64,000 nt of DNA from Hormiphora californensis (lineage: Eukaryota > Animalia > Ctenophora): positions 3,224,001-3,288,000 of the forward strand of contig CM035361.1 in NCBI GenBank assembly GCA_020137815.1. The letters are read 5' to 3'. A program made the position numbers and the translations under genes. The notes under the pieces were generated by a model. The model made no database searches, was not told the DNA's origin, and saw only the letters and a list, made by a program, of their open reading frames with translations. Shown one piece after another: positions 1,889-64,000 of the stretch. The stretch's first letter is position 1. Each line of letters opens with the position of its first letter.

Positions 1889-3767
1889 CGTTGCTATATC
1901 ATCCGGTGCTATATAAATATGGGGAGGAGTGGCCGATAAACTCTTGAGCTGTTCTATCGCCTCTGTTAGTGTGGCACTGAGAAAAAGGTAAGATAAAAAC
2001 AAAATTATGTTTATTAGATTAAAATTAGGTTAATTAGACTAATTAGTTTAATTAGTTTAATTAGGTTGAGTAGATTTCTTTTGTAAAGCAATTTATAAAA
2101 TTATTTTGAATTCTAGTTACCTGAAAAGAAGAGTCTGTCGTTTTTTTGGCAAATTTCCAAACACATCCGCTAAGTCCTTCTGGAAGCACGGTTCAAAAAG
2201 ACGATCTGCTTCATCGAGTACTAAGAACTGAATTTTACTGAGATCTAAACCGTCACCTGATGAGCGAATTAAAGGTAAGGTAAGGTTGAAACCCGATTTT
2301 TGTTGAAATCTACAACTCTATTAAATTTACCTGCCCTAAATTCTGTCGAAGTTCTACCGACATGCCAACAACTCAACTACTGTGTACTTATTGTAAATGA
2401 ACACAACAACAAAATATTTCAGGTTTTACCAGAGTTTATGTGATCAGCAAGTCGGCCCGGTGTAGCCACAATGACGTGTGGTTTTCGGGCTAGCTCGACA
2501 CTCTGGGTCAACATGTCCATTCCACCAACTATGACACTAACTCTCACACCTGAATGTTACGTGGATTCACCATGGTTACACTAACTCTCACACCTGATTC
2601 AGTTGTAACGTGGATTAAAAAGACTATAATACCATGGTTACCATGGTTACACTCACTCTAATACCATGGTTACCATGGTTACACTCACTCTAATACCATG
2701 GTTAAGAAATTTTGCTTACCAATATGAGCGCCGAGTGCAACAAACTGATCTTTGATTTGAAACGATAACTCCCTGGGAGATTACAGATCCGTTATAGCCG
2801 AGTTGAACTGTTTTTTGTGTCCTTTTTTAGCTTTTTTAGTGTGTCTGTTTTTAGTGTTTTTTAAATTCTTTTAGCAAATATCGTATGTGGGAGCACACTG
2901 AAGTAAGGACTGTTTTTGTGTGTCTGAATAAATTTTTACAATTATTGTCCTATACTATTTTAACTTCAAATCAATTCAAATTCTGTCTATTATATTGTGT
3001 ACCTGGTAGGTGTAAGTACAACTGCAAATATTCCATAAGGATCTGAGCTAAGCTTGTCGAGGATGGGCAGAGCAAAGGCGGCAGTTTTTCCTGAACCCGT
3101 CTTAGCACAACCAATACAGTCCTTACCTGGAGAGGGGGGGGGTGGAGTACTTAGTAAGTAGCGGGGGGTACTTAGTAACTAGTAAGTAAGAGAGAGAGAG
3201 TGGGGAACTTAGTAAGAAAGCTGGAAGGGAGATGGACTTCAAAAGAGATTCAACCAGAAGAGTACAGTGAGAAATATAGAAAGTACAATGAAATAGTGTT
3301 TATTTAGGACTGTAGACGACTCGGAGATTTATTTCAGGAAAGATAATACGGGACGGTTTCGACGTTTAACGTCATCATCAGCTCAAATTAATTTGTTTAA
3401 AGTAGTGTTGAAAAAACTTTTCAACACTACTTTAAACAAATTAATTTGAGCTGATGATACGTTAAACGTCGAAACCTTTCCTGAAATAAATCTCCGAGTC
3501 GTCTACAGTCCTAAATAAACACTATTTCATTGTATCAAAACTATGCGACTCAAAAACAGCCGATTGGTCAACTTATTGATTCAAAATAGAAAGTAATTGC
3601 CTTGTTTGAACAAAACATAGTTCAAAGTAAGAACTAAGAAGTTTCGCGGTCATACCTTCCAGTATGCTGGGTATACAGTTCAATTGTACAGGTGTTGGTG
3701 ACTTCATACCCAGACCACTACACTGCTGTTGTAACCATGTCTTCAATCCCAGCCCCTCAAAGGTCAT
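1889..3767 (-). CDS. DDX49: DEAD-box RNA helicase DDX49/DBP8, N-terminal half (exons 3767-3656, 3126-3003, ~2772-2720, ~2550-2429, ~2256-2121, ~1977-1889)
   Basis: Spliced translation gives [82 protein letters not shown] 1-nt frameshift follows DEADRL (~2196-2199). C-terminal exons were not found in the window. Confidence 0.85.
3284..3534. mobile_element. Head-to-head inverted pair of SL-capped hammerhead-core (Penelope-like/retrozyme-like) retro-copies in DDX49 intron 1
   Basis: ~125-bp arms form an inverted repeat. Each arm reads SL + CTGATGAT(G)ACGTTAAACGTCGAAAC... outward from the centre. Confidence 0.7.
3382..3450. other. Two spliced-leader exon copies back-to-back (minus 3382-3414, plus 3415-3450)
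   Basis: TTTTCAACACTACTTTAAACAAATTAATTTGAG on both strands. Identical to the sequence at the LINE 5' end 61956-61988 and matches the ctenophore SL as I recall it. Confidence 0.8.
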
Positions 3768-4994: not shown

Positions 4995-5119
4995 GGTGCA
5001 ACCTAAAAAAGGAGGGTTTATTGAATTAGTTCTCAGTTCTGTCGCCCAGGGTACTTGTTGAAACGCCACCGAGAGCAAAAATTGTTGAAGTATGCTACAG
5101 GCCCCTCTGGAGAAGGTCG

Positions 5120-6600
5120 TTGTGTACGGTGGTCGTTCCATATGGGTCGGTACACGAGGGGTCCAGGGGCGGTGCGCAGCGTTCAGCCGTTCTGGTCAAA
5201 ATGCGGCCGAAATATTTTTAACTCGCGCGTTCCGTCGAAATACCCAATGCGGATGGTCCGCATTGGCTATTTTGACGTAGCGGACCGATAAAAAATACTG
5301 CGACGGCAAAAAAACCTGTGTGGCACACGGATTTCACTAAAAATCTCATTTGAAACATCAAATTTTGAAAAAAATTGACCCTTTTCCTTGAATTTTTTCT
5401 TCTTCTCTCCGTGATCCAAAGTAAAAATGCGGACGCGTCTGCATCGTCCGCATGGCAGAGCCGCCCCTGGAGGGGTCTGTGTCGCATGTCAGAGAAACTT
5501 GCGACAAAAACTGTTTTCTAAAATTTTTTTGAAAATTCACTAACCCTAACACCGATTGGCATCACTTTCCAACAGCCGAAGAGAAGCTGCCGAAGAGAGA
5601 AAGGGGGTAACCGTATGAAGAGTTAATCGCGATGAGTCTCATTCACATTGGGACTTGGGTTCGATCATTTGCCCCCGGTGTTGGGGTTAGTAACAAATAA
5701 ATATTAAAATCACTCACTCGAATAAACAATAAATCTTACAAATAAAATCTCACACAAGATTCAGATATTGAAGTCAATGCTACCAAGTCCTACTGGGGTG
5801 TATTTTGTTCGACACCCCCTCAGAGATCTCAAGGTTGCGATTAGTAAGCAGAATCTCAGCCTCCTTCTGATAGCTGCCAACGCCTCGCTGTACATCTCTC
5901 CGTGCTTGTCCTCGATGTGTCTGACTGTCTTCTTCATCGCCCTGTCCATTTCTGGGCCAACACCACCTGTTGTTGTAAAGGTCCCCCAAACTACTATGTC
6001 CCTTGCTGCGCGCGACCGGATTTTAGACGGCCATAGCTCCACCCCCTGATAAGATAGAGACTTGAAATTTGTTTTGTAGGGAGATCATATCGAGTTCTTC
6101 CTACAAAACAAATTTCAAGTCTCTATCTCATCATGGAGTGGAGTTATGACCGTGGGAAATTTCACAAAACCCGAGTGAGGGACATAGTAGTTTGGGGTGT
6201 ACTTTAAACACCAGTGGAGGTTCAAGTTTAAATTTTTGGCAAACATGAACTCGTCCAGCAGCGCAGCGCGGCGCGACTCGAGGGTAACCACGAATGCGCG
6301 CCGTTTTTGGCATCGTTTGTTGGAATTTTTCGCGGGCACCGTTTAAAAGGCAGCGCAAATTCGATTAAGTGAAGGCGCCGCGCATATGTTGATTAAAATT
6401 AATAAATTTTAAAAAGCCAGTTTTTTTAAATTCAAAAGTTTCACTTCCGAAAAGTGGTTCTTACTTCTTTGTCCGCTTTTAACTTCCAATTTGAACTTGA
6501 ACTCGAAAAATGCTTCCGATGTTGTTTTAATTTCACGATTTGAATTTAATTTGAATTTGAGCTTTTAAGTCTAATACCAGAAGCGTGTTTGCTCCGTTGC
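5120..6600. repeat. Unclassified interspersed repeat, inverted copy at ~62140-63350
   Basis: Blocks 5126-5163, 5474-5522 and 6290-6600 match the reverse complement of 63316-63352, 63260-63309 and 62140-62500. Confidence 0.7.
5690..5985 (-). mobile_element. 5'-truncated RLE-type (CRE-like) non-LTR retrotransposon 3' end
   Basis: FTTTGGVG...YSEA...IRRRLRFCLL.ATLRSLRGCR resembles the C-terminus of animal CRE-like RT-RLE ORFs. It is followed by a T-rich 3' end. Confidence 0.6.
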
Positions 6601-6730
6601 ACGCTTTCAGCCACTCAGACAGACGTTTCAGACAAAGGTTGTCAGTCAAAAAAGCTTAGGATAGGTCAACATAGCCGTTAATTTTTCAGTTCCAACAATA
6701 TTAGTTGGTACCGGCACTTTAAACGTTTAA

Positions 6731-8841
6731 CCCTTTGACGGCGACAGAGCATATATGCTACAGTATATTCTAGGCGGCCTGGAAGTCCTTATGTTTTATC
6801 TAGGTGGCCCATATTTTGTCACAAGCTAGTTTTAGGGATTATGAACCTAAAACCACGTCCAGATCAGCTCAGAAAATCAAGAAAAAATTTTTATAGCCCT
6901 TCTAAGGAGGCTAATTTCGGCCTTTTTTTAAAAACATTTCTCATTTTTTTGTTTTTTGGGGGCACAACTAATCCTTTGAAGGAATAAAAGTGCTCGACAT
7001 AACCGACCGAATGCAAAAAGCCGCATCAAAAAATATTGAAAATTGAATGAGTTATTAACATTTAAGGTGCCTTATCATATATGATACTATCGAATTCTAC
7101 TGGGAATTCTAGTAACAAATCTAAATTGTACAAGTTTGTGGGTGCTATGGCATAAATTTATGCTTTTATGTGGTATGTAGCTACAAGTTCTACAATCGTG
7201 AACGGTTTTTACCAGGAAAAGAACCCAAATTAGAGATTTGTATCATATATGATACTATCGTCCTAAGGGTAAATTCTCCTAAAACATACACAATTCGGGC
7301 TAGAAAAGGAGCTAAGAGACAAATCAGGGCACTAAAATGTGTAGAATCATCGCATTAGTGGGGGTAGAGCACATATTTAGGTCGCTATCTGGATCCATAA
7401 TTGAGATAATTGGATAATTAGCTAATTAGTTGCCCTGGAGCGCTAATAAATGAGACTAGGCGGAGTATGCAAGACAAGTGAGGGCACTAAAATGTGTAAA
7501 ATCATCGCCTTAGCGGGGGTAGAGCACATAGCTGAGTTTCTATTCCCACTCCTAATTGAGATAATTGGATAATTTGCTAATTGACAGTTGCACACCGTCC
7601 ACTTTTCACCAAATCCCGTGGTTTCTAGGTAATCCTGAGCTCTTTTGCTCAATCTAAGGATTTTCTGACAACCCCTAACCCCATTTGTATCACCTTTGAC
7701 TCGTTTTACACAATAGTATAGCACTCGATACAACCCTAGACACTGCCTTCAGCTCTTTAGAACCCTCTTGCTCCATCCTAGACCTCTCATACATCCAAGA
7801 TCCAACTAGGTACAATCCTATAGAATTTTTATATCCTATTGCTCCTACAACACGTTCAACCTCTAATTGTACTACAGTTTCCCATGTTTATTGTTTGGAC
7901 ACACGGTTATAGGGGTTTAGGGATATTAGGGGATGTCAGAAGATCCTTAGATTGAGCAAAAGACCTCAGGATTACCTAGAAACGACGGGATTTGGTGAAA
8001 AGTGGACGGTGTGCAACCGTCAATTAGCTAATTAATAATTATCCAATTATCTCATTTAGGAGTTGGAATAGAAACTCAGCTATGTGCTCTACCCCCGCTA
8101 AGGCGATGATTTTACACATTTTAGTGCCCCTACTTGTCTTGGATACTCCACAAAGTCTCATTTATTAGCGCTCCAGGGCAACTAATTAGCTAATTATCCA
8201 ATTATCTCAATTATGGATCCAGATAGCGACCTAAATATGTGCTCTACCCCCACTAATGCAATGATTCTACACATTTTAGTGCCCCCATTTGTCTCATAAC
8301 TCCTTCCCAGAGCAAAGTTTCATGAATAATTAGCACACGCAGGACAGATAATTAGCTAATTATCCAATTATCTCAATTAGGGATCCAGATAGCGACCTAA
8401 ATATGTGCTCTACCCCCACTAATGCGATGATTCTACACATTTTAGTGCCCTGATTTGTCTCTTAGCTCCTTTTCTAGCCCGAATTATGTATGTTTTAGGA
8501 GAATTTACCCTTAGGACGATAGTATCATATATGATACAAATCTCTAATTTGGGTTCTTTTCCTGGTAAAAACCGTTGACGATTGTAGAACTTGTAGCTAC
8601 AAACCTCATGAAAGCATGAATTTATGCCATAACACCCACAAACTTGTACAATTTACTAATTTAGATTTGTTACTAGAATTCCCTTACGGACGATAGTATC
8701 ATATATGCTACAGTGGGCCCAGCAAAAACTACATGTCGGAATTACAAATTTCCTTTTCGAGGCGTTTTGTGTTGATAATATCTACTTATAAACGAAAAAT
8801 TAGACAATTCTATCGAGCCAATCCTTCACGCCGTCAAAGGG
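6731..8841. mobile_element. Non-autonomous piggyBac-type element with internal long inverted repeats
   Basis: TTAA|CCCTTTGACGGCG...CGCCGTCAAAGGG|TTAA. The paralogue at ~42632-42650 has the empty site with a single TTAA. Internal IR ~7070-7740 versus 7900-8710. Confidence 0.9.
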
Positions 8842-8970: not shown

Positions 8971-11900
8971 ATGACGTCATATCTTACTATCGTACTACTT
9001 GCAATTTTCCACACAGGTAGGTATTGTAAATTCTATTATACAGTCGGACCCCGATTTAGGGGCCCCCGATTTAGTGGCACCCCAATTTAGGGACAGGATT
9101 TTTTCCCCCGATATAGGAAATTAACCTTATTTGACCCCGATTTAGTGGACACCCCGATTTAGTGGACAAGAGCCTTTCCCCCGAGGGTGTCCCTAAATCG
9201 GGGTCCGACTGTAGCTACAGGAAACCTCTTTAAATAGTGTCACCTCTATCATATTATGTTGACAATTGTAACCCATAGTTCCTCCTCAGGATTATCCCGC
9301 GAAGAATGCTCCGCTACAACCCGAACCTTGGGCAGGCCCACCCGTCTCATTATGCAGGAGCACAATCGTTATCGAGCCATCCACGGCCAATCCCCAATCT
9401 GCTACGGGAGTGATACAGCCACTTTCTCAGCGGAACCTTGGGCAAAATCAATCTCCAAGAAATCGGATCTGATCCACAGTGCCTATTATAACAGGGGTGT
9501 GTTTGGCGAGAGTTTGGCGGGAAATACGGATAGTTTGGAGGAGGAAAAGTTCCTGTTCACAGCTATTAAAGACTGGTTTAATCTGTGTAACTTTATTCCT
9601 GTTAGTGAGCTAACTCTAACAGATGTAAAGAGAGATAAACGTGTTGAGTCCTGTTTACAGATTCTCACAGCTACAAATGTGGAGTGCGGCTGGGATGATA
9701 AGGTGGTGGTATGTCAGTACTGGCCGGCTGTTAAAAAGGGGTTTCCAGTTCTTCCCAAAGCGACCGATTGGAAGTTGATGGATGGTAAAATGGAGAGGAA
9801 AAATTTTATAAAAACAGCTCTGGATGATCTGCGTCCACAGATTGTCCAGGTGAAAGTACCACCTGAGAGACTTGGTGATACTTTATTGGATGTTACTTTC
9901 TCTTATTCTCTCTCTTCGGCAGTCGACACTGGGCTAGGCATTAGTTATATAGATAAACCTAACTCGGCGACTGCATTGGATATCGGATGTGGAAAGTTTC
10001 CCCTCGACTCGGAAGTTCCTAAAACGTGGAAAACGCTGGTATTTTCTTATAACGTTACTGGAAATCTTGATTGGAGTAACAGGGAAGCAATTGTTGGAGT
10101 AAATGGGAAAGAAATTGCTAATCTCGCTCCTAAAAAGAGAGGGTAATTAATAAATTAAATCCCCCCAAGACATATTTTCACGTAGCAACAACAAAGTTGT
10201 AAAAATATTTTATCTTCATTTTCCTAGGTGTTTTAAAGCGGAGTTTCTATTGCACAGAATGGACCTAAACTGGGTGGGTGTCAACACGGGATGGCCCTTT
10301 GACGCCAGATTACTCACAACAATTACTGATCCCCTACCTATTGTGGACAAAATTGAGAAACCAGATGACGAAAAAGAGAAACCAGATGACGAAAAAGAGA
10401 AACCAGAAGATGATGAGGGATCAGTGAACGATAGGTTACTGCCTGGTGAAGATTCTGTTTTGTTTACTGAGGCATCCTACGGAACTGATGATGATGAGGT
10501 CACATTGGATGGAAAGAAAATTATCTTTCCTCAGGTAACTAATTGGTTTGTTCAAACTCTTTTATATAACAGTCTAACACTCTAACTTGGCAAGTAATTA
10601 ATTTAGTTGCTAAGTAACATGAAGCAGGTGTGTTTAAGAATTCAGGTTGCTAGGTAACATGTTGCTAAGTATGACGTTTCTAGACAGAATAATTCTAGAC
10701 ATTGGATTGCACTAGGTTGCCAGGTTGTTACTTATATCGCAACACCAGGTTTGGCTTAATATTATGTAGTAGGTTGCCAGGTTGTTACTTGAATGACAGC
10801 TCACAACACTCAAATCCCATAAAACCTGCAGGTTCACGTTACGTTTATGGAGGTGGGAACCCACCAAGTCACAATATACCTGGATCACAGTGGGGAGTTT
10901 GAGGGAATTTCAGGGTTACAGTTGATCTTAGTACCTGACAAAGTCGAGGATAAAAATGCCTTTAAAACTACTGTTAACACTTACCAAGATGCAAAAAGGA
11001 GCTTCAAGGTGAGGAGAATGAAATGATGGCAGAATTGTTAAAAGTAGCTCTGTTCAAAGCTCTGTTCAAAGTCCCTCAGCTCAGAGAACAATAACATGTT
11101 ATATCACATTATATATGATTTGGGTCGTGGAGAGTAGAAATCGCTGTTACATCTCTCCCTCATTTCTCGAACTGCTCCAATCAATGCCCTAAAATTTCCC
11201 CGCCGTGCAGGATAAGAAAGGTGAACTGACAGTGCCCTAACATTTCCCCGCCGTGCAGGATAAGAAAGGTGAACTGACAGTGCCCTACATAACTGCCGAG
11301 TTTACGGAACTACCTGATCACTTTGTAATCGGTGATGGGTTGTTGTATGGGGAGTATTACAATGGACCCTTATTGGTGGCACACGGGCACGCCAAGTACA
11401 GTGTGAGGGTCAGGGGTATCGTAATGGGGAAGAAGGGAAAGGTATGATATATCTGATATTTTCTAACATGACTTATACCCATCTTTTTTTCCGTGCAAAT
11501 GTGTGGTAATTCTTAGATTCCAAATGGTTCAAATACTTGAGTACAAGTACAAGTAACAAGTACAAGTACAAGTACAAGTACAAGTACAAGTACAAGTACA
11601 AGCACAAGCACAAGTACATACAAGTACATGTTATACAAGTACAAGTACAAGTACAAATACACAAGTACAAGTACAAGTACAAGTATGACACATGATTTCC
11701 CCTCATACAGAGATGGTTCATTGACTCTGATATCCTGGGTGTGTTTGACACGGCCACCGCCAGCTATGCAGGACTTGGTTTGTTGGCTGTCTTATTTCTG
11801 GTAACATTTGGCGCATGTTACAGTGCCCGAGTTAGGAAGAGACGGCGTATGAAGGAGGTTAGATTTTCCCGAATCGTATACATTTCTTGTGATTATAAAT

Positions 11901-13149: not shown

Positions 13150-33247
<20,098 letters not shown>

Positions 33248-36141
33248 AACAACCACCTTGGAGGCATTGTGGTTAGTGGTTAAACTGGGTTGAAGTGGTT
33301 AGTGAGATGAACGCACAGTATTTGTCGTAGGAAAATGAACTGTCGAACAAAATCAAATCACCAAAAAAATAACCAATAAATGGTGCCGGGACGTTCACTG
33401 TCAAGAAATATAAGTGTACTGCAGTGGCCGCAGCTCGGTAGAAACCAACTTGACTGCTTGAAATGGAAGTGAGATAAAGAATACAGGGGTGAAAACTAAC
33501 ACCACCCGGCGAGATAACAGGTCACATGCGACCTGGTATACGCATTTTGTGACTCCCTGGTCTCACACGTAGTATGCACTATTTTTATCTTTATCCTGAA
33601 GTATAAAATATATAACGTTTCAAGGGCGAATCAAGGAGTGATAAACGTTATCTGGCTTGTGCTGAAATCACGTACTTCACCGGCAGGTACCTGCAGGGTT
33701 AAAAACTGTGCTAAAATACGCTTGTGTCACGGACAGGCATACAGTTCGATACAACCTGGTAATTGTTGTAAAGGCGGAGTACCGGCTGTGAAGGGGGTAG
33801 ACCATGGTGTCTTATCAGATGAAATTAGCCCGAAACTAGAGCAGCTTTTGAATTCGTGACGTCACAGTTCTCCAAGGAACGTTCTCCAGGGAATATATCA
33901 CGGGACTTCACTGATAATGTCGAAAAGTGCAGCTTTTTGGATGACTGTCAAGTTAGATCACCTTCATGCACGTAAATACTTTTATAATGATAAGGAATCT
34001 ACACGGTCCCGCAGGACCTATTTCAAGAAATTTATTCCTGTTTTTTACAAAAGGAATAAAAAATCAAACTCACTTTTTCACCCCTCATAATTGTTTTAAT
34101 AATCCCCATCCCCCACATCTCCAAAAACATTGACGAGTTTTTGTTTTCACCGCTGTAACACGATCGATAGCTCAATACCCTCTTTTCTGAGTTTATCTCG
34201 TCACTGCTGTAACACACAACACCCTCTCAGGATGTAGCCATGTCGGTCAGCAACACAACAAAGCTACTCTCCAAATCCCAACTCTCTCTCTAAGATCGTA
34301 AGTACGAAATGTATACACGTTTGTTGCCTTGTCTGTGTTTGTTTAGTCCTTTCCCAATAATATTAATTCCCTCTTTTCCAAATGATGACAAATACAATGG
34401 AGGAATGGGAATGGGAATTCACAATAAAGTTAGGTCGACCTAGGTCGTGCAATATGAATTCTTCTTTTCCCCCTCTTGTTCATAAAATCCTAAACTCCAA
34501 GGACGGGCTGAATATTACTTCTACTCGATTCGCTCATTTAGTAAGGGAATAATAGTAAATTTTATCCGCAAAATTTTTAACAAGCTCATTTCTTCACCAG
34601 TAGGTCCGGGTAGGTGTCTAGTATGACCAAAAAAAAGATACGATAATCGGAAGTGCGCACACGCACTGAGCGCGCAAAAAGTAAACACATGTAAATACAT
34701 GTTTTTCTAGCCTGGCATGAAAACCCAAAAACCATCTTAGGAGACGAGTAGAGAAAAAATCAAGGGCACTAGATTGTGTAGCGTCCTCGCATTAGTGGGG
34801 GTAGGTGCTGGAATTAAGTCTCTATCTCATCTGGTTAATTAGATAATTGGATAATTAGATATGCACATAACCGTATTTTGGCTATATGGCTATAGCCACT
34901 TAGGAATGGTTTAGAGACTTTTCACTGGTGCCATTTTGTAGGCAATAGCCAAGTTATGGGGAGTCGACGTCGGACTTTTAAGCTATATCTCCAACCGTTT
35001 GGCCGTTATTTGGCTTTAAAGATGCTCAAAATGAGCAAAAACGGTAAAAAGCCCGATTTTGAGCATCTTTAAAGCCAAATAGCGGCTAAACGGGTAATAT
35101 GGTAGTTCTGGGCTGAACACTTTCGACCGCTTTAAAGCGCTTTAAAGCGTTTGAGAAAGCGCTATAAAGCGCTTTAAAGCGCTTTAAAGCGATACCGCTT
35201 TAAAGCGCACCGCTTTAAAGCGCTTTTAAAGCGCTAAAAGCGCTTTATAGCGGTTTTTGTAGCGATATAAAGCGCTTCCGAAAGCGCTTTAAAGCGCTTT
35301 CAAAAGCGCTTTAAAGCGCCACCGATTTAAAGCGCTTTTTTTTGATGGCGAGAAAAAATAAAGCGCTTTAAAGCGCTTTAAAAGCGCTTTTAAAAGCGCT
35401 ATAAAGCGCTTTTCAAAACGCTTTATAGCGCTTTAAAGCGCTTTTAGCGCTTTCAAGCGCTTTTAAGCGCTTTAAAGCGGTGAATATCGCTTTAAAGCGC
35501 TATAAAAAGCGCTTTTAAAAGCGGTGTTGAAAAAGCGCTTTTTAAAGCGCTTTACAGCGCTTTTAAAAGCGCTATAAAGCGCTTTTTAAAGCGCTTTAAA
35601 AAGCGCTTTATAGCGCTTTTAAAAGCGCTGTACAGCGCTTTAAAAAGCGCTTTATATCGCTTCAGAAAGCGTTTATAAAAACGCTTTAAAGCGCTTTAAA
35701 GCGCTTTTAAAAGCGCTATAAAGCGCTTTTAAAAGCGCTTTCTAGAGCGCTTTAAAGCGCTTTAAAGCGCTTTTAAAAGCGCTTTTTAATGCACTATAAA
35801 GCGCTTTAAAGCGCTTCTTATAGCGCTTTAAATAGCGCTTCATAGCGCTTTATAAAGCGCTTTATAGCGCTTTATATAGCGCTTTAAAGCGCTATAAAAA
35901 GCGCTATAAGAAGCGCTATAAAGCGCTTTATAGCGCTATAAAAAGCGCTATAAAGCGCTTTATAAAGCGCTATATAAAGCGCTTTGTAGCGCTTTTTATA
36001 GCGCTATAAAGCGCTTTATAAAGTCTTTTAAAAAGCGCTTTAAAGCGCTTTTTATAGCGCTTTATGAAGCGCTGTAAAGCGCTTTATAGCGCTTTATAAA
36101 GCGCTTTCAAGCGCTTTAAAAAGCGCTATAAAGCGCTTTAA

Positions 36142-37531
36142 GGGTACGCTAACCAAAAATTTTTTTCGAGTGCAGGGAAATCTCTCACCGTTGGGTTGTA
36201 GGCCATGCCAAGGAGACCTCAAATATGCAATTTGAGCTCTCAAGTCGAATTCATATTTTTGCTACAGCTGCTTGAAAAATGAACTGAAAATAAGGTTTTG
36301 GCATCTTAAAAATACATTTGTAAAGATAGGATCATAAAAATTTGTGGATTTGAAAAGGACAAAGAGGTGAGTAGCCACAAAAAATTTTTTTGCAATCCGA
36401 GCTGATTTCCGGTCCTGAGATGGATTTCTTTTTTTCCACTTTAACGCCATATTTGGCAAAGTTCCGAAAACATGTGAAAGCTGTAAATTGGTGAAAAGTT
36501 GCGTCTAACGATTATCTAAGTGGCCATAAATTTTGGGCGTGTCCTTATTTGAGATAAGCTGTACAGAGTTTTTTATGTGAAAGCCGTCATTTCAGAAATA
36601 AATAAATTCCCTGTATCTCAAAAACGGCTGATCGTAGAGACCTGAGACTATGCTTAAACGATTCAGAAGGTCCGATTTTGGGGGGGTCTTCTGAGAGACA
36701 TTTTGCTCCTACTTCAACCGTTTTTGCTGTAATTGCGAAAAACAAATTCTATGAAATGGGCAAAAGCTAAACTCCAATATCCTGTAATTAGGGAATTTTG
36801 GCTAAGAAAGGACCGAAACTATGGAAAAATGTGTAACAAGCTGATTCCTTCACTATTTGGTCCATATGGGTCCCTATAATCACCAAAAACAAAATCACAA
36901 AAAATCCACGATGGCGAAGATGGGTTTTTGTTTTTCGCAATTACAGCAAAAACGGTTGAAGTAGGAGCAAAATGTCTCTCAGAAGACCCCCCCAAAATCG
37001 GACCTTCTGAATCGTTTAAGCATAGTCTCAGGTCTCTACGATCAGCCGTTTTTGAGATACAGGGAATTTATTTATTTCTGAAATGACGGCTTTCACAAAA
37101 AAAACTCTGTACAGCTTATCTCAAATAAGGATACGCCCAAAATTTATGGCCACTTAAATAATCGTTAGACGCAACTTTTCACCAATTTACAGCTTTCACA
37201 TGTTTTCGGAACTTTGCCAAATAGGGCGTTAAAGTGGAAAAAAAGAAATCCATCTCAGGACCGGAAATCAGCTCGGATTGCAAAAAAAGTTTTTGGGGTT
37301 ATTCACCTTCATGTCCTCTTCAAATCCCCAAATTTTCATGCTCCTATCTTTAAAAAAAATTTTTTGAGATGCCAAAAACGTTTTTACAGTTCATTTTTCA
37401 AGCAGCTGTAGCAAAAATATGAATTCGACTTGAGAGCTCAAATTGCATATTTGAGGTCTCCTTGGCATGGCCTACAACCCTACGGTGAGAGATTTCCCTG
37501 CACTCGAAAAAAATTTTTGGTTAGCGTACCC
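36142..37531. mobile_element. Non-autonomous Kolobok-like element
   Basis: TTAA|GGGTACGCTAACC...GGTTAGCGTACCC|TTAA (RR..YY termini, TTAA TSD), ~600-bp TIRs. Confidence 0.85.
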
Positions 37532-38281
37532 TTAAGAAGCGCTTTATAGCGCTTGTTAAAGCGCTCGAAAGCGCTTTATAAAGCGCTTTTTATAGCGCTT
37601 TCTAGCGCTTTATAAAGCGCTATAAAAAGCGCTTTAAAGCGCCTCTTAAAGCGCTTTTTATAGCGCTTTATAAAGCGCTATAAAAAGCGCTTTAAAGCGC
37701 TTTATGAAGCGCTATAAATCGCTTTTTAAAGCATTCTATTCGGTTTTTGAATATTATTGTATGTAAATCCCACTTTTTCGTGATCACTTCCACTCCTTTT
37801 CAGATTAAACTGCGTTTCTGTTGGGGGCGATTATAATTTGGGTGCCTTGCAGCCTGTGTACAGGTGTGCGCTACCAAAAGAGTACACTTAGACCGAGTTT
37901 TTCAAATGTCTATAGTCATGCAACCACAAGGCCAATTTGAGTTAACTAAAGTCTCTTTTTGGGAGAGAGGGAGTGAAAGAGAGGGTACACCACGGAGCAC
38001 AGTTGCAGGTATGATATCCCCTCTTTCTTCTATCCTCCCGCGCTGTCTCTCTCAGTCTCATGTTATCGCGTGCGCTATGTTTAGTTCGGGATGGGGGCGA
38101 GTGAGGGATAGAGAAAGAGGGTATACCATTACCACGGAGGATTTTAATAGGTGCGGCGTTTTCGGGTGTGGCGGGCGCCATGTGAGGTTCACAGCCATAT
38201 CATGATGCTTTTCGGAATTTCTAGGGGGTGTAATTTTTACGCCGTAATCTGGCTGGTGGCTCCGGCTGGTTGAGACACAGT

Positions 38282-39035
38282 GGGGGGTACGTCACCTTTT
38301 TTTTTGCCCACTGCCCACATTATTCTTAAATTTTGAATTTGCCCACATGGGCAAAAGTGGGCAAAAGTAGGCAAAAGTAGGCAAAAGTAGGCAAAAAATT
38401 TAAATCCCATAAAAAATATATGCTATCAACCAGGTAATCGTCTGTGACAAAGGTTTTTCACCACCAATGTCCTCCTAGAGGTCCCCCCTATCGATTCCAA
38501 CCGATAATTTATTTGCTCAGGGTTGATAAGGCTCCATATCCAACTGGGGAAAATGGGCAAAATATGTTGGCAAAATTAGGAAAATTGGTCATTTTAGGCA
38601 CGTTTCTCACATGGTTGGAGTGGAAAATTTTTCTGGTTTTCCTGGGACCCCATTGGAGTACAATGCAAGTGGAAAACCTTTGTTATGTATCAGTTCCCTA
38701 AATAGCCCCAAAATGACGAAAAATCACTGGCCTTTGCCTAATTTTGCCAAAATTTTTTGCCCACTTTTGTCCAGTCGGACATGGAGCCTTATCAACCCTA
38801 AGTCATAAGAAAGTACATTAATTATCGGTTGGAATCGATAGAGGGGACCTCTTGGAAGACATTGGAGGTGAAAAACATTTGTCACAGAGGGTTTTCTGGT
38901 AAAGTTTTGATGCTTATAATATTTTTGCCCACTTTTTGCCCACTTTGCCCACATTATACCTGTTTTTTGAGATTTCAGTTTGCCCATGTGGGCAAATGTG
39001 GGCAAATGTGGGCAAAAAAAGGTGACGACCCCCCC
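38282..39035. mobile_element. TIR element with poly-G termini and 8-bp TSD (MULE/Merlin-like)
   Basis: GACACAGT|GGGGGGTACGTCACCTTTT...AAAAGGTGACGACCCCCCC|GACACAGT. Confidence 0.85.
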
Positions 39036-42000
39036 GACACAGTCTACAGCTAAAACAGTGTAAAGATGTTAGTTATGAGACTTGAATGGTCAATGGTGAC
39101 GTCAGACGTGTGTGTAGCTGGTATCAAGTCAATTGATTGAGAAATACGAATACAAGTGGCAAGTGCTGAGTCATGAGAGCAAGTCGAGAATCTCAACTCT
39201 CAAGACTCAACGGCAGACCGCAGACGGCACTCGGCAGAAGTAAGTGAAAACAAAGAAATGAATTCACTGCCAACTTATATTTGAGTCTGAACGGGCATGT
39301 TCCTTGGGTACGGTGCACCCTCTCTTTTTGGGAAGGGGGTAGGAGAGAGGGAGTGAAAGAGAGGGTACAACACGGAGCACAGCTTATTTGGACATATGCC
39401 GAGTTTTATTAGTGCAAATTTTCCCACGGCCGTGGGAAACTATGAAAGCTTCATGTGATGAGCTCGTTTTACTATAAAAAGCGCTTTCAAGCGCCTTAAA
39501 TAGCGCTTTTAAAAGCGCTTTAAAAAGCGCTAGAAAGCGCTTTTAAAAGCGCTAGAAAGCGCTTTTAAAAGCGCTTTATATAGCGCTTTAAAGCGCTTTA
39601 TATAGCGCTTTTTAGCGCTATTTAAAGCGCTTTTCAGCGCTAGTTAAAGCGCTAAAAAGCGCTTTAAAAAGCGCTATAAAGCGCTCTAAATAGCGCTTTA
39701 TAGCGCCTCGAAAAGCTCTTTAAGAAGCACTTTATAGCGCTTTATAAAGCGCTATAAAGCGCTTTTTAAAGCGCCACAAAAAGCGCTTAAGAGCGCTTTA
39801 TAGCGCTATAAAAAGCGCTTCATAGCGCTATTTAAAGCGCTTTATAGCGCTTTTTATGGCGCTTCAAAGCGCTTTAAAAAGCGCTAAAAAGCGCTTTGAA
39901 AAGCACTTTATAAAGCGCTAGAAAGCGCTTTTAAAAGCGCTTCCTAGCGCTTTTTAAAGCGCTTTTCAAAGCGCTTTTTAGCGCTTTATAGCGCTTTATA
40001 GCGGTTGAAGTAGCACATTTTATATCGCTTTAAAGCGCTTTAAAAAGCGCTTTTTAGCGCTTTAAGAAGCGCTTTTTAGCGCTTTAAAAAGCGCTTTATA
40101 AAGCGCTTTTTAGCGCTATAAAAAGCGCTTTTTAGCGCTATAAAAAGCGCTTTAAAGCGCTTTCTAAAGCGCTTTTTAAAGCGCTAAAAAGCGCTTTTAA
40201 AAGCGCTGTATAGCGCTATAAAGCGCTTTCAAATATGCTATATAAAGCGCTTTAAAAAGCGCTATAAAGCGCTTTGCAGCGCTTTATAGCGCTATTGAAA
40301 GCGATTTCTAGCGCTTTTAAAAGCGCTATAAAGCGCTTTATAGCGCTTTTAAAAGCGCTTTCTAGCGCCATTTAGCGCTTTATAGCGCTTTTAAAAGCGC
40401 TTTCGAAAGCGCTATAAAGCGCTAAATAGCGCTTTAAAGCGATCTGACGAAGCGCTTTATAGCGCTTCATAGCGCTTTTTAAAGCGCTTGCAAAACGCTT
40501 TAAAGCGCTAAATTTTGAAAATAAAGCGCTTTAAATCGGTGGCGCTTTAAAGCGCTTTTAAAAGCGCTTTATAGCGCTTTCGAAAGCGCTTTATATTGCT
40601 TCAGAAACCGCTATAAAGCGCTTTTAGCGCTTTAAAAGCGCTTTAAAGCGGTGCGCTTTAAAGCGGTATCGCTTTAAAGCGCTTTAAAGCGCTATAAAGC
40701 GCTTTCTCGAACGCTTTAAAGCGCTTTAAAGCGGTCGAAAATGTTCAGCCCAGAACTACCATATTACCGCTAAACGGTTAGAGATAGAGCTTAAAAGTCC
40801 GACGTCGACCCCCCATAACTTGGCTATTGCCTACAAAATGGCACCAGTGAAAAGTCTATAAACCATTCCTAAGTGGCTATAGCCATATAGCCAAAATACG
40901 GTTATGCGCATATCTAATTATCCAATTATCTAATTAACCAGATGAGATAGAGACTTAATTCCAGCACCTACCCCCACTAATGCGAGGACGCTACACAATC
41001 TAGTGCCCTTGATTTTTTCTCTACTCGTCTCCTAAGATGGTTTTTGGGTTTTCGTGCCAGGTTAGAAATACATGTATTTACATGTGTTTACTTTTTGCGC
41101 GCTCAGCGCACGTGCACACTTCCGATCATCGTATCTTTTTTTTGGTCATACTAGACACCTATCCGGACCTACTGGTGAAGAAATTAGCTTGTTGAAAATC
41201 TGATCCCTAATGTGTGGAATCCCATACCTGGACTTCTTAGGAACTGTATCAGCTCATCATGATCTGCACTGTTTCCACTCTCTCCTGGCATGAAGCCAAG
41301 TAGCATGCAGGCTCACGCCTAACTACAATTTGCCTTCATGCTGCGTACTTCAGTGCTTCACGCGTAGAGATGATGGCGTGAGGAACGTACGCGTACTGTT
41401 GGGTGTTATTTGCTGAGAGTTCATGATGAGTTGGGGATATTTTTCTTCTTCTGGTTTTTTTAACACACTGTGTATAACGGTTTTTTTTTTTTAATAAATA
41501 ACTCTATTAAAACAGTATAATATTAGTTTGATGCACAGATCTGTAGATAAACAATCAACTGTTATATATCGGGTTGATTCTGTAATTTCCAGAGTCCAGA
41601 CAAAATTTTCTTATCACAAGCTCGTCGAAAGATTACCTGTGATCACTATGCTTCATCAAAACTCAGAAGTTCAACTACCATTCCCAAAATAACAAGCACA
41701 ACGTGTCCTCTCTGTCTCTCTCGTGCTAAATCTAGCTCTATATCGTGTCTGGATTCTCGCTTCTATCTCTATCTTCGATCTCGCGCTATACTAGATCTAT
41801 GATCTACTCTCTCGTCTCTTCTAGAGCGACTCTCCATCTCTCTTCGCGCGAGCGATTGAATTGCGGATCTCTCGCGCGCCTCGCTCCGATAGCTCTCTCT
41901 CGCTACCGCTATCTTTTATCTCTCTTCTCTCTCTCTCTCCTCTGCTCCCCTCTACTCTCTCCTCTCTCTCTCTGATCTTCGCTCCGATACTCTCTCTCTC

Positions 42001-42049
42001 TCCTAATCTCTCGTCTCTCTCTCCCTCTCCTCTCGCTCCTTTTACCCAA

Positions 42050-42514
42050 TCTGTCAGAGTTAGCTCACTGACAGGAATAAAGTTACACAGATTAAACCAG
42101 TCTTTAATAGCTGTGAACAGGAACTTTTCCTCCTCCAAACTATCCGCATTTCCTGCCAAATTCTCCCCAAACACACCCCTGTTATAATAGGCACTGTGGA
42201 TCAGATCCGATTTCTTGGAGATTGATTTTGCCCAAGGTTCCGCTGAGAAAGTGGCTGTATCACTCCCGTAGCAGATTGGGGATTGGCCGTGGATGGTCCG
42301 ATATCGGTTGTGCTCCTGCATAATTAGGCGAGTGGGCCTTCCCAAGGTTCGGGTTGTAGCGGAGCATTCTTCGCGGGATAATCCTGAGGAGGAACTATGG
42401 GTTACAATTGTCAACATATAATAGAGGTGACACTTTCCTGAAGCTATAATAGAATTTACAAAACCTACCTGTGTGGAAAATTGCAAGTAGTATGATGGTA
42501 AGATATGACGTCAT
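42050..42514 (-). pseudogene. 3'-truncated inverted copy of the CAP-domain gene (exon 1 and part of exon 2)
   Basis: Near-identical to 8971-9622. Breaks after ELTLTD into a (GA)-rich tract. Confidence 0.85.
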
Positions 42515-47186: not shown

Positions 47187-47313
47187 ATCTGTTTGTACTG
47201 CATTTTTAATCATTTTATTTCGGTTGAAGGTTGATTGTCTCAATGGTGTCCCTAACCTTACCCACTCCAATCTATTAAATGTAATCTCTACCTATCTCTC
47301 TCTCTAGCACTCC

Positions 47314-50300
47314 ATGGCACCAGTTTATCGGTATAACAAACGTTCAAGAACAACATCCCGTCAGTCATGGTCTCCAAATAGTATGAAGTGCGCCATCGCC
47401 GCCATCCACAACGGGGCATACGGGTATGATAGAGCGTCCAAGATTTATAATGTGCCGAAAGCCACGCTTTTTAGGAGGGCCAAAGGTACAAACAAGGTTG
47501 CCAGTGGAGTCCAAAAGGTTCTTGGTTCGGGGAGAACAGTGCTTACACGCGATATGGAGAAGAAATTAGCCGGCCATATATTAAAGATGGAGGAGATGCT
47601 ATTCGGTTTGGGGATTCGTGATGTCTGTCGGTTGGCGTACGAGTTAGCTGAACGAAACGGCCTGGCCCACAAATTTAATCGACGGACCAAAATGGCAGGG
47701 TACCATTGGTTTTATAGTTTTATGAGTAGGTTTCCTCATCTGTCGGTGAGAAAACCTGAATCTGTATCAGCTCAAAGGTCCCGATCTTTCAGTAAGAAGA
47801 ATGTTGACGAATTTTTTCATACGTACAAGATACTTCTGGATAAGGTCAAGTTTCTGGTCGTTGCGAGGATTTTTCACAAATTTTCATTTAGATATTTTAA
47901 TATGTTCCTATGATGACTGGTACTCATAATACCACTAGACCGGTGTACAATTGTTTACTCTAAATTTCTGTGAAAACTAGAACTCAATTGCTTGCTCTAA
48001 AGCAAAGTTATAGCCGTTTTAACACGTGCGGAGCAAAATTGTGCGGAGCCCCCTCTGGAGGTGATGTTTTCATCCTTTCTCCATGAAATTTTTGTATATG
48101 TTTAATCAAATTATTTCTACATATACTGTTTAAAAATGAAAAGTCGGGAACTCAAATTGTGCGGAGCACATCGATTTTTGTGGCAAATCTTACTCATTGG
48201 GGTTACTTACATTGACTTAACATTTTATTTATAAACTATTTGATTCTAGAGACATTTTAGGAGCTCATGGAGTCATCAGCTGGATCAATAAGTTTACTCA
48301 AATTAGTGTGGAGCCGATTTTTCCATATAACCAAAATATAGTCGTTGGCCGATCTGTAGTAATACTTCCAAATAGAGTAATAAGTCAAAAAGTATTAGGG
48401 GTAGCTTCTTTAAATAAGTGAATTAATTTGGCAAAACGATAGTGGAGCAAGATTCTTGTATATTTCGAAGATACTAACTCAAAATATGTGGAGCAAATAC
48501 TGATTTTTTGACAAAAACTGCTCCACATCGTTTGAGTTGCGGTTAAACCGGTTCTTGATTTAAAAAATTAGTTGTGCAGATAATTGGGTACCAACAACTT
48601 ACCATTTCAACCAGAAAAAGTTACTCAATTTGTGTGGAGGAGCCCCTAAAGGAGCCGTATCTGTGTCCAGACAGTCACAAAATTCGCCCAAAACCTTATG
48701 GCATGCCCTGTTTCTGATTCTCAGAGAGGAAAATCATTGCTCCCCTAGTTTTGAGTAAAGCTATACTAATGCTTGGTTAAATTATAACTAATATTTGGTT
48801 AAATACTCAATTGGTTGTAGTATAACTCGATTTATCAAGGCCAAAGCAACTGATGGTATTCCATGGTTTTATGTGTAATTGCTCCACACAATTTGAGTCC
48901 CATGATTAGGCAATATTATTACTGTAATATTATGGTCTGATGAACGTTATTTTGATGCAAATAAAACTTATTCTGTTATTATTCAAGGAGATAATTTATA
49001 CTGCGAAAATGGAGGGGGAAATCATGTTTTGCTCCACAAATTTTGAGTCATAAGATTAAATTACTGATAAAATAAGTACTGGTATGTTATTGTTGCCACT
49101 TAGCATACGTTTTTAGTTTGATTGCTTGTGAATTGAACCCGCAAAGTATCGAAGTAAAAAATAATAATTTGGACCCATGAATATAACACCTGCTCCTCAC
49201 AATATGAGCATATCAGGGTACATTTTTTTAGCATGGATACTTATTTTTAACATTTAGGAAAGGAGTTCGATTAATTTTAGAATCTAAAATTATGTTTATC
49301 TTTCCTCAAATGGGCAATAAAAAAGCTTCCCCTTCAAGCAGCTCTGGCTCCGCAAATTATGAGCAAATCGTTACTCATCGGTAATCACGGTTTAGTTTCA
49401 TAAATTATCTTAATATTTAAAAAGGTCCTACTGCTAAACTGATAAAACCTAAAAATCCAGAGAGCATTTAGCATCGTTGGGCTTGGGCTCCACATTATTT
49501 GAGTTTAAGTTCTAAAACGCATGTAGTATACTAATTTAAACATATTTACATAAGTATACTAAATTTTATGTTGATTCAAGTACTCTAAGATGTCCTAATA
49601 AAGGTTTTAAAAATTTTGGTGGAAAATCCAACACCAACTTTTCCCAAAATCCTCGCAACGACCAGAAACTTGACCATAAGCATTCGTTTCCACCCCACCT
49701 CATTTTCAATATGGATGAAAAGGGTGTAAGTACGGTTCCAAACTGTCCTCCTAAGATTATAGGCATGAGGGGTAAGAAACAGGTGGGAACAATGACAAGT
49801 GCAGAACGGGGAGTTAACACCACCGTTGTCGTATGTGGGAACGGGTCTGGAGAATTCATACCGCCGTATTTCATCTTCCCCCGTAAAAAGAAGAATCCAG
49901 AGTTCATGAAAAATGCTCCACAAGGTTCTGACTATCACGCCGAGACCTCTGGTTGGATGACCTATGAGGGGTTTAATCAATGGTTGAAATTCTTTATCGC
50001 AAGAGTCGGATGTACGGTGGAGAGGAAATGTTTAGTTATCCTTGATGGCCACATAACACATGTGAACAGCATAGCGGCGATTGAATTAGCAAGAGATAAT
50101 GGAGTGGAGCTCCTGAAATTTCCGCCACACTGTACACATAGAATGCAGCCCATGGACGTAACTGTGATGGGGCCTCTACAGACTGGATTTGCGAAACATT
50201 GTGCACTCTGGATGAGACAAAATCCTGGTTCCCAGATTAGTATTTACCAAATAGCTGAACTATTCGGGAAAGCTTTCGAGGGAACACGAATGACAGGAAA

Positions 50301-52970
50301 TTTAGCGTCCGGATTTAAAAAGTGTGGCATATGGCCGGTAAAGGAGGACATATTTGAAGGACAGTATGTGACAGCCCATCAGAACCCCTCAACAAGTGCC
50401 TTACCCCTGGGCCCTGGGCATCAGTCTGCCTCCGATCTCTCATCTGATGAAGGACATCCGGACACCAATTCCATTGACCCAGCAGACATAGTACCCCTTC
50501 CCACCATCACCTACAGTGGTGAAGGAAAACAACGGAGGAGAACCAACAGCAGTGCTGGTTCAGTGGTAATCACCAGTAGCCCGCACTTGAACAAGCTGAG
50601 ACTAGAGGACGAGAACCGGACCTTAAAAGAAGAGGTTAAAAGATTAAAAAGAGAACTGAAGGGTAGCAAGAAGACAATCCCCGATACCGACACGAGATCA
50701 GGAAAATCCTACAAGTGCAAGGCACGGGTGAGGAAACAACCACCTGCCGTGAACAGTAACACTGACGATGATCTCCCTCCTGTATCTCCAGTCCCACCAG
50801 GTAGGAAAAGAAAGTGTAAATGATAACTGGGTGTGAAGATTTACAGTTTTAATTCAATTCCATTCCTTTTTCACAACTCACGCCCCCTCCAGGTACAAGC
50901 AAGGGCAAGGCACGGGCCAGAAAACAACCACCTGCCGTGAACAGTAACACTGACGATGATCTCCCTCCTGTATCTCCAGTCCGACCAGGTAGGAAAAGAA
51001 AGTGAAATGATAACTGGGTGTGAAGATTTACAGTTTTAGTTCAATTCCATTCCTTTTTCACAACTCACGCCCCCTCCAGGTACAAGCAAGGGCAAGGCAC
51101 GGGCCAGAAAACAACCACCTGCCGTGAACAGTAACACTGACGATGATCTCCCTCCTGTATCTCCAGTCCGACCAGGTAGGAAAAGAAAGTGTAAATGATA
51201 ACTAGGTGTGAAGATTTACAGTTTTAATTCAATTCCATTCCTTTTTCACAACTCACGCCCCCTCCAGGTACAAGCAAGGGCAAGGCACGGGCCAGAAAAC
51301 AACCACCTGCCGTGAACAGTAACACTGACGATGATCTCCCTCCTGTATCTCCAGTCCCACCAGGTAGGAAAAGAAAGTGAACTGAAAACTGGGTGTGAAG
51401 ATTTACAGTTTTAGGCCCCTGTCTACCCTAATTCTGTTCCATGCATTTTTTACAACTCACGCGCACGTCCCTTCCAGTTACCGGCAAGTGTAAGGTACAA
51501 GCCAGGAAAAAGCTAACTTATCCCCCGAATCTCGACGATAATCTCCCTCCTGTATCCCCAGTCCCACCAGGTAGGAAAAGAAAGTGTAAATGATAACTAG
51601 GTGTGAAGATTTACAGTTTTAATTCAATTCCATTCCTTTTTCACAACTCACGCCCCCTCCAGGTACAAGCAAGTGCAAGGCACGGGCCAGAAAACAACCA
51701 CCTGCCGTGAACAGTAACACTGACGATGATCTCCCTCCTGTATCTCCAGTCCGACCAGGTAGGAAAAGAAAGTGAAATGATAACTGGGTGTGAAGATTTA
51801 CAGTTTTAGTTCAATTCCATTCCTTTTTCACAACTCACGCCCCCTCCAGGTACAAGCAAGGGCAAGGCACGGGCGAGGAAACAACCACCTGTCGTGAAAA
51901 TTGACGATAATCTCCCTCCTGTATCCCCAGTCCCACCAGGTAGGAAAAGAAAGTGAAATGATAACTGGGTGTGAAGATTTACAGTTTTAGGCTCTAGATC
52001 CGGTTTAAGTTAACTGGGTGTGAAAATTTACAGATTTAATTCAATTCCATTCTTTTTTCACAACTCACACCCCCTCCAGGTACAAGCAAGGGCAAGGCAC
52101 GGGCGAGGAAACAACCACCTGTCGTGAAAATTGACGATGATCTCCCTCCTGTATCTCCAGTCCCACCAGGTAGGAAAAGAAAGTGAAATGATAACTGGGT
52201 GTGAAGATTTACAGTTTTAGGCTCTAGATAGTAGATCCGGTTTAAGTTAGTTAGATCACACCCTGGTAAATGATAACTGGGTGTGAAGATTTACAGTTTT
52301 AATTCAATTCCATTCCTTTTTCACAACTCACACCCCCTCCAGGTACAAGCAAGGGCAAGGCACGGGCCAGAAAACAACCACCTGTCGTGAAAATTGACGA
52401 TGATCTCCCTTCTGTATCTCCAGTCCCACCAGGTAGGAAAAGAAAGTGAAATGATAACTGGGTGTGAAGATTTACAGTTTTAGGCTCTAGATAGTAGATG
52501 GGGGGGGGGGGGGTTCCAACCTATTTCTTGTATGTTTGTACAAAAATATACAAAAAAGTACAAAAAAATAAAAACAGTTTTATATGGTAATTTACCATTA
52601 CTAGCGCACCCATTGGGTGCGCCTCAAGTAAGGGCTTTTTGATAACCTATCCGGCTTCGCCGGGTGGTTCTTTTCGCCCCTTTTACCGTCAAAAACATGG
52701 TTGCCATGGCAACTGAATTGGTAACTATGGGGACTGGCGTCTTAAAATTCATTCGAAAATATAAACAAACTTCGACTGGAAGTTCCAAAAATGTAAACAA
52801 CAGCTTTGCAGCTTTGTGCACACAAAGTATTTTATGAAGGAGCAGTCTGTCGCGTAGATACCGCCTAACGAACGACCACTTCGACGTTCATCTCCAAATT
52901 ATAATAGAGACTAGAAAGCCCGTTGGTTGGACCCCGTTGATGTCTCTCTCTCCATCTCTCTCTCTTCCCC

Positions 52971-61890: not shown

Positions 61891-61955
61891 GACTATCGAT
61901 GTCGGTTTTCGTGTTATCTGCCCTTCGGGGCGGTCACATAGCATTCATCTTCCTG

Positions 61956-61997
61956 CTCAAATTAATTTGTTTAAAGTAGTGTTGAAAAGTTTGAAAC
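61956..61997 (-). other. Spliced-leader exon fused to the LINE 5' end
   Basis: GTTTCAAACTTTTCAACACTACTTTAAACAAATTAATTTGAG|CAGGAAGATG. Confidence 0.85.
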
Positions 61998-63451: not shown

Positions 63452-64000
63452 AAACTTTCAACACTACTTTAAACAAATTAATTTGAGGAAGATGAATGCT
63501 ATGTGACCGCCCCGAAGGGCAGATAAACACGAAATCCCTGACATCGATAGTCATGAAGAACACGGAGAAGATGATAAAGCTGAGCGATCAGTTGGCAAGC
63601 CTGAAGAATGAACTAGAGGGAAAAGGACTGCTAACCTATGTCGTAAAAGGTACTCACAAGCCCGCTTCCGACAACCCAACGCGTGGAGTCCTGTTAAAGC
63701 TCCTAAAAAAGGCATATAAACTGTCCGAAGAGCTAGTAAATGCCCAAACTGACGCGTTCTCCAATGCACCATCAACTGTAACTGGAGAAACTACAATCAC
63801 GTGCCGTAACAAGTCGTGTCCTAAGACGCTGGATGATGACAGAATGTGTGCCCTTATAAACCAGAACGAGGGTCTGGCTTGGTTCTGTCCTGCCTGTAAT
63901 AACAAGAACGATGAGCCATCCCCTCTAACACAGAGGATTCTTGAGGATAAACTGGCGACATTTGAGCAATCAATGCTAGGGAAGTTTGAGGAACAAATCG
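63452..64000 (+). mobile_element. Second LINE of the same family (diverged subfamily): SL 63452-63487, ORF1 from 63553 runs off the window
   Basis: AAACTTTCAACACTACTTTAAACAAATTAATTTGAG|GAAGATG. MKNTEKMIKLSD...WFCPAC is homologous to the ORF1 at 61890. Confidence 0.9.

Follow-up and report, generated by a model that had tools for sequence, protein, structure and literature searches.

An inverted repeat in the ctenophore Hormiphora californensis is very probably a pair of head-to-head 5'-end copies of a Penelope element, which arose as a single insertion from capped sense RNA that had been trans-spliced to the host spliced leader (SL). The window, i.e., the complete stretch of 64,000 nucleotides that was analyzed, was compared with the contigs of three DNA runs (X2, X5, and X6) and one RNA run, and all data of DNA and RNA runs considered here are short-read contigs. 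Copies headed by SL occur in two organisms, in which they make up a family with many members. The features of the locus are listed in Table 1.

Table 1. Coordinates of the insertion, its parts and its host site in the window.
Feature	Position	Strand	Basis or remark
Left copy of target-site duplication	3276..3285	.	10-bp repeat; its final 2 nt are shared with the element
Left arm, 5' UTR part of Penelope pLTR, no tail	3286..3344	-	Stops where similarity to the 3' pLTR of the parent stops
Left arm, intact hammerhead-like core	3345..3381	-	Sequence and pairing tests
Left core, CUGAUGA	3381-3375	-	
Left core, 5-bp helix II	3373-3361	-	
Left core, GAAA	3360-3357	-	
Left core, GUC	3354-3352	-	
Left core, 3' strand of helix I	3351-3345	-	
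Left arm SL (3' 33 nt of 44)	3382..3414	-	Match to published leader
Head-to-head junction	3405..3427	.	Recurrent palindromic SL-SL junction minus 6 nt
Right arm SL (3' 37 nt of 44)	3414..3450	+	Match to published leader
Right arm, damaged hammerhead core without cleavage triplet	3451..3476	+	1-nt and 13-nt deletions
Right arm, 5' UTR of the element	3477..3542	+	Alignment and run contigs
Putative Penelope tail: start codon and first 14 ORF codons (MRLKNS...)	3543..3585	+	Profile of full-length relatives
Right copy of target-site duplication	3586..3595	.	10-bp direct repeat
Host intron holding the insertion	3127..3655	-	Translation
DEAD-box helicase gene, first two coding exons flanking the intron	~3656-3767 and 3003-3126	-	Translation

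The palindrome is part of a 300-bp insertion (3286-3585) with 10-bp direct repeats on either side, and because these repeats bound the whole structure, it can be regarded as one insertion. When pairs of 20-nt windows were drawn at random 5000 times, one pair shared at least 10 bases. The host gene was recognized by its downstream exon (Pfam DEAD, E=1e-11), and a Pfam search with the upstream exon returned no match. One contig of run X6 joins position 3281 to 3590 and lacks the palindrome; since its length exceeds that of a clean empty site by 4 nt, it may represent either a variant allele without the insertion or a deletion that occurred afterwards. The left flank has no coverage in run X2, an absence that carries no weight. 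In the host pre-mRNA, the whole insertion is computed to form a single extended hairpin (-188.5 kcal/mol).

Read on the minus strand from 3414 to 3284, the left arm consists of SL, CTGATGA, T, GACGT-TAA-ACGTC, GAAAC, and CGTC, which matches the original description of SL followed by a hammerhead core and GUC. The same description had the right arm short of one G and about 13 nt including the GUC, and alignment of the arms confirmed both losses (13 nt in the second case) with no substitution elsewhere. Its view that the unit had been retro-copied twice needs modification: the head-to-head arms are real, but they result from a single event, and the insertion belongs to a family with many copies instead of consisting of two rare retrocopies. 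Low depth at 3455-3469 indicates that the deleted core of the right arm is a rare variant in the sequencing runs. Both leaders are 3' parts of the 44-nt ctenophore SL (PMC8527503), which assigns the DNA to a comb jelly of that type, and since no GT follows them, the arms are not SL RNA genes. The fold of the tail was unremarkable (z 0.04), as were those of the arms. Further core-like strings at 2257 (+) and 13565 (-) were discarded for their unconvincing stems, and a supposed resemblance of one UTR frame to the RT-EN linker was dropped because the parent element places this stretch outside the ORF.

The parent of the arms was found among metagenome contigs, in which a motif scan yielded 78 loci; one of them, L024, was the sole member of the family of the window, and the same scan of viral contigs gave no matches. 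L024 is about 92% identical, not identical, to the window copy (91.7% over 108 nt between the left arm and L024 1255-1362). It is a 3' fragment holding the 3' part of the ORF, split by a frameshift, with an RT active-site stretch (YxDD) and a GIY-YIG domain match in two frames (E=0.0016, 19.1 bits, under the cut-off of 22.6). A CX2-5CxxC linker lies between RT and EN, as pattern search also found in four of five full-length relatives, and a CxxC between GIY and YIG together with downstream His residues corresponds to the CCHH motif as defined in PMC8557442. With these features, L024 qualifies as an EN+ Penelope-like element with Neptune/Nematis-type features, and the Penelope-like origin proposed originally is supported. 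Relatives of 926-940 aa exist; among four that were scanned, P0003 matched RVT_1 and GIY-YIG, two matched GIY-YIG only, and one had no match. When the endonuclease piece served as protein query, none of 294 candidates matched, and contigs of run X5 showed no differences from the ORF of L024. Only this 3' part was recovered, with no full-length parent carrying a 5' pLTR seen. The other 77 metagenome loci are at most putative Penelope kin, a weak endonuclease match (E=2e-4) being present only in L066.

The two arms end differently: the left one stops where similarity to L024 stops, and the right one continues for 51 nt with one ATG (3543). The peptide encoded there resembles the N-termini of full-length relatives (e.g., MRVKNSQLVSYLKQ in P0037), whose pattern is MR[LIV]x[NS]. 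A held-out profile of six previously unused relatives placed the tail start first among 968 ATG-started frames of the window (15.5, next 4.8); in an earlier six-residue test, it had tied for second of 1413. Judged by sequence, the right-arm extension is the one-sided Penelope tail, and the window contains no ORF pieces beyond it. The insertion as a whole combines inverted head-to-head pLTR parts, a one-end tail with the ORF start, and a target duplication.

The position of the leader bears on the template. The stop codon of L024 is followed by a GA-rich stretch and by ACTAAC, which resembles a branch point; next come a pyrimidine tract and a TAG that abuts CTGATGA. One X6 contig represents an unspliced acceptor region with a different pyrimidine tract and the same AG before the core, so that the native acceptor AG that had been postulated immediately upstream of CUGAUGA was seen in two variants, and acceptor-bearing forms were found in both organisms. 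In the arms, SL is joined exactly at this 3' splice site, without a GT donor after it, and replaces everything upstream of the acceptor AG. Because each arm starts with SL at the acceptor of the parent, both were likely copied from capped sense RNA. The predicted SL-CTGATGA join was also present in the runs: loose ends at L024 1263 continue as SL in at least four X6 contigs (agreement 0.98) and in at least one contig of RNA run X15 (depth 8.5, with DNA or read-through of a genomic copy as possible sources), and it was absent among the loose ends listed for a second RNA run. As the X15 contig has the helix II loop of L024 and the window another, the SL join occurs on two sequence variants. Summed contig depth in X6, which is only a rough indication, is about 900 on the upstream side of the acceptor in L024 and 30,000-54,000 across the core, implying that the native upstream part is probably missing from most X6 copies. 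In X5, the corresponding summed depths are about 4,000-27,000 upstream of AG and 33,000-69,000 over the core, and unspliced forms are commoner than in X6.

Several further observations concern the acceptor region. L024 1178-1183 reads GTAAGT and thus resembles a splice donor; in three runs, loose ends show GTATGT. Lying 87 nt before the acceptor, this site could allow cis-splicing of an 87-nt intron, as in Drosophila virilis. No cis-splice joint from L024 1178 was seen in a comparison that skipped the adjacent GA repeat (1141-1176), and the computed helix I of the predicted cis-spliced form is no better. An unspliced RNA contig of X15 over L024 1177-1362 (depth 2.2) differs at 29 places; the changes listed for the run are 20 A>G and one T>A, and include the A of the acceptor and two A residues of the core. 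The A>G changes, for which there is no matched DNA, fit ADAR hyper-editing of double-stranded repeat RNA as described in PMC9989829. The flank after the pLTR (L024 1363-1420) is itself repetitive, with high depth in run X5, and may be a favored target.

A search of the runs showed that the SL-headed stretch is present in DNA of two organisms. Summed contig depths, which are not copy numbers, are approximately 5,000-7,500 over SL, core, and UTR versus 7-8 over the flanks in X2, and 50,000-80,000 versus 50-290 in X6, a rough contrast of two to three orders of magnitude. According to run contigs, the family sequence extends rightward to about 3583. The family is homogeneous in X2, where 1265 of 2146 contigs are at least 99% alike, SL-only contigs being counted too.

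Head-to-head joins recur in the same data. A 6-nt insertion at 3413 was detected in one contig each of X2, X6, and X5, and in none of the RNA run; the centre of the window copy equals this recurrent junction minus 6 nt. Contigs with the recurrent junction have summed depths of 103, 829, and 833 across all three DNA runs, although these three contigs may end short of the hammerhead and may derive from other SL-headed elements. Their two spellings are the two strands of one junction, which is a palindrome save its central base, reaches SL nt 2, and is centred on SL nt 2-12, a self-complementary stretch. An 86-nt contig of X5 bridges core to core through the head-to-head centre, and X2 and X6 contain one further, shorter head-to-head join each. 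As DNA, the junction motif was computed to be far more stable as a dimer (-7.5 kcal/mol) than as a hairpin (-0.3 kcal/mol). Of 100,000 shuffled SL sequences, 2783 had an equally large inverted motif close to their start, so the one at the 5' end of SL need not be selected.

A likely pathway for these structures can be outlined, and parts of it have precedent. In vitro, both target strands were extended by the Poseidon element PAc of Anolis carolinensis, reverse transcription started at two internal sites, and the tail maps between them (PMC11167929). In the ctenophore, SL trans-splicing would take over the acceptor that in Penelope elements ordinarily serves a 5' UTR intron, and the protein of the element would nick both target strands and prime reverse transcription at two internal sites. 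Each cDNA would extend to the cap, and the two cDNA ends would then anneal through the self-complementary nt 2-12 of SL and be repaired into a palindrome, a step for which the chances appear even. The palindromic products, having neither promoter nor ORF, would be dead ends, whereas unspliced RNA would rebuild pLTRs. A broader proposal is that SL trans-splicing is a fork in the life cycle, capped mRNA with a disabled ribozyme leading to dead palindromes and unspliced RNA, with ribozyme and promoter retained, to live copies, and that head-to-head junctions of Penelope elements generally come from paired ends of sense-RNA cDNAs instead of antisense self-priming; this proposal as a whole is tentative and on balance rather unlikely.

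The same trans-spliced sense template might also have served only once, with a single cDNA folding back at the 5' end of SL and an endonuclease trimming one arm at the pLTR end. This alternative is a serious one, though it has clearly less than an even chance: it yields exactly the same junction and arms free of mutual substitutions (arms without differences are as compatible with one template as with two), and Craig et al. (PMC8557442) ascribe the tail to endonuclease-mediated resolution. The computed hairpin at the SL end is nevertheless marginal compared with the dimer, and the two arm ends match the two in vitro start sites of reverse transcription, where both target strands are extended (PMC11167929), which favors two cDNAs. 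Alternatively, SL may have been captured only once, the unit of SL, core, and tail then spreading in a SINE-like manner from read-through transcripts and without fresh trans-splicing. The great excess of SL-headed over acceptor-bearing sequence in X6 and the homogeneity of the family in X2 agree with such a history, but a junction that reaches SL nt 2 is expected from a stop of reverse transcription at the cap, not from read-through RNA. Since the unit in addition has no evident promoter and is not tandem, and SL is found on two sequence variants while acceptor-bearing forms persist in both organisms, a single capture appears improbable.

That the palindrome is a fold-back artefact of assembly or library preparation can hardly be maintained. 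It is true that, among the contigs listed for DNA runs X2, X5, and X6 and the RNA run, none spans the centre or the ends of this exact allele. However, the sequences flanking the palindrome are unrelated to each other, the arms differ by two deletions and by 51 nt in length, the site has a 10-bp duplication and a counterpart contig that lacks the insertion, and three runs from three studies contain head-to-head junctions. Paired 5'-end copies of SL-trans-spliced Penelope RNA, inserted in one event, are the preferred reading.

What the hammerhead motif does is a separate question. The CUGANGA core, GAAA, and a NUH triplet are present in the left arm and L024, the triplet being lost in the right arm, and an extra base after A9, a G10.1-C11.1 pair, and a helix II of 5 bp were found as in minimal type I forms (PMC4209133). 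The computed probability of the first helix II pair is 0.42 in the native form and 0.64 in the SL form. Native helix I, for which minimal type I forms have 4-5 bp, comprises a G-C pair, an A/C mismatch, and three pairs (two of them G-U in L024), i.e., four of five positions, compared with two of five in the SL form; in terms of registers, the native form has either four of five with a second-position mismatch (GUC) or four contiguous pairs including two G-U (GUA), and the SL form has one or two contiguous pairs. The claim that SL replaces the 5' strand of stem I holds for the upstream strand, which is indeed swapped, but positions 2.1 and 2.2 remain unchanged on splicing because AG is common to the acceptor and SL. 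Moreover, the parental stem I expected to pair with CCGTATT was not found, as L024 has no clean complement. Helix I has near-zero ensemble probability in both computed forms, in which the core pairs instead with sequence downstream of GUC. Helix III is an odd 5-nt stretch with a central C/C mismatch, and the palindromic 15.2-16.2 and loop 3 for dimer cleavage are absent. The hammerhead covariance-model scan that had been suggested gave no Rfam hammerhead match at E up to 1 or 10, with models that may or may not cover minimal forms; otherwise, Rfam returned only hairpin-driven miRNA matches below cut-offs and weak chance matches.

As SL takes away two of the four helix I pairs, SL-headed RNA is predicted not to cleave. 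In the original proposal, the position of the acceptor would let trans-splicing inactivate a working ribozyme and so decide whether the RNA cleaves itself or becomes capped mRNA. The fall in helix I pairing from four to two positions, a G/A variant at L024 1261 that keeps pairing with U, and the spliced and unspliced forms of D. virilis Penelope, which also define different helix I (PMC4209133), are in line with such a switch. Nevertheless, it is doubtful that it operates here: native helix I is mismatched at its second pair and hardly populated in the ensemble, no Rfam hammerhead matched, and helix III has no even palindrome, in contrast to 14 of 20 other AT-rich motif variants in the same scan (many of them interrelated). 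In addition, in the sole element tested, ribozyme mutants had no effect on insertion and no RNA-seq ends were found at the cut site, according to the text of PMC11167929.

With respect to folding, window 3343-3349, just past GUC, is complementary to 3373-3380 (-) of the core and dominates the computed fold, and the 13-nt deletion of the right arm removes this stretch. The same minimal core occurs in AT-rich metagenome loci (L002, L003, L013, L017, L025, L045, L078, and others), in most of which helix III is palindromic and helix I short; AG directly precedes the core in none of the 20 AT-rich motif variants. A second core-sharing group (L007, L039, L040, L042, L051, L061, L069-L071, and L076) has upstream sequence that, judged by eye, looks complementary to the stretch after GAAAC, as in type III-like hammerheads.

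Each ingredient of the locus has precedent, and what the locus adds is SL as a strand tag on head-to-head Penelope copies. Inverted pLTRs, a one-sided tail, and target duplications of 9-10 bp are described for Penelope-like elements in PMC3846280 and PMC8557442, and the Neptune/Nematis-type EN+ members in these sources share with the present element RT with a C-terminal GIY-YIG, the CX2-5CxxC linker, CCHH, a hammerhead pLTR, inverted head-to-head pLTRs with a palindromic junction, an ORF-start tail, and a 10-bp duplication; unlike theirs, the 5' ends of the window arms are host SL and hence come from spliced sense RNA. In D. virilis Penelope, too, the 5' strand of helix I is where a 3' splice site falls, with helix I differing between spliced and unspliced forms, but this element is spliced in cis to its own first exon (PMC4209133), whereas the window element is spliced in trans to the host leader and its spliced product is fixed in DNA in many copies. 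Two internal 3' ends also define the ORF-start tail of PAc, whose target is similarly AT-rich; its ORF, however, starts within helix II rather than, as in the ctenophore element, about 105 nt after the core start, and it is described in PMC11167929 without SL. In dinoflagellates, a DNA copy of SL reportedly marks retrocopies of processed RNA in a similar way (PMC5585692, PMC12014239), and about 30% of Iso-Seq reads of Hydra transposable elements carry SL (PMC12220107); as far as these accounts go, the present locus differs from them in that the element is a Penelope, a ribozyme lies at the join, and the SL end closes the palindrome. Non-LTR retrozymes (bioRxiv 10.64898/2026.07.22.740005) are also short, non-autonomous, hammerhead-bearing derivatives of Penelope-like pLTRs, but they are head-to-tail tandems bounded by ribozyme cuts, whereas the window unit is inverted and SL-bounded with its cut site uncut; classification as a retrozyme was rejected, since the unit is an inverted pair and not a tandem with a hammerhead per unit. 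No report of SL joined to Penelope or its hammerhead was found among papers searched by title and beginning of abstract, and passages of PMC7986045, PMC11067881, and PMC12460157 contributed nothing further.

The origin of Penelope head-to-head repeats and the RNA strand involved were left open in PMC3846280, where, as far as its account goes, palindromic junctions are read as self-priming on an antisense template, which is favored, tests are called for, and intron retention is stressed. Because the addition of SL requires sense RNA with a splice acceptor, the leader is a natural tag of both strand and 5' end, and SL-headed arms with their apex inside the leader bear directly on this antisense model. 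The family also supplies paired native and SL forms for probing what Penelope hammerheads do. Furthermore, 718 genomic copies of the leader have been reported for a ctenophore genome (PMC8527503), and the data suggest that some of these copies are retrocopies rather than SL RNA genes, which would matter for annotation.

A second retroelement class had been proposed to use the SL pathway, and the APE+RT LINE of the window indeed also starts with SL. It lies at 57515-61999 (-) with intact-looking ORF1 and ORF2, and a related second copy at 63453-64000 (+) is SL-headed as well, the two diverging 1.45 kb apart. Their SL joins differ by one CAG, as tandem alternative acceptors would give. Elsewhere in the window, 47308-50823 (+) contains fragments of DNA transposon origin, in which a DDE_1 domain was recognized (E=1.8e-19), and after them a tandem repeat of about 188 bp. 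Other palindromic or inverted repeats are located at 5967-6214, 15362-16004, and 34573-41199, and the inverted repeats of the window include a large inverted pair of complex arrays. Finally, 9238-10146 (+) and 41821-42510 (-) are related intronless peptide-coding stretches, part of a repeated unit, whose peptide is presumably CAP/SCP-like.
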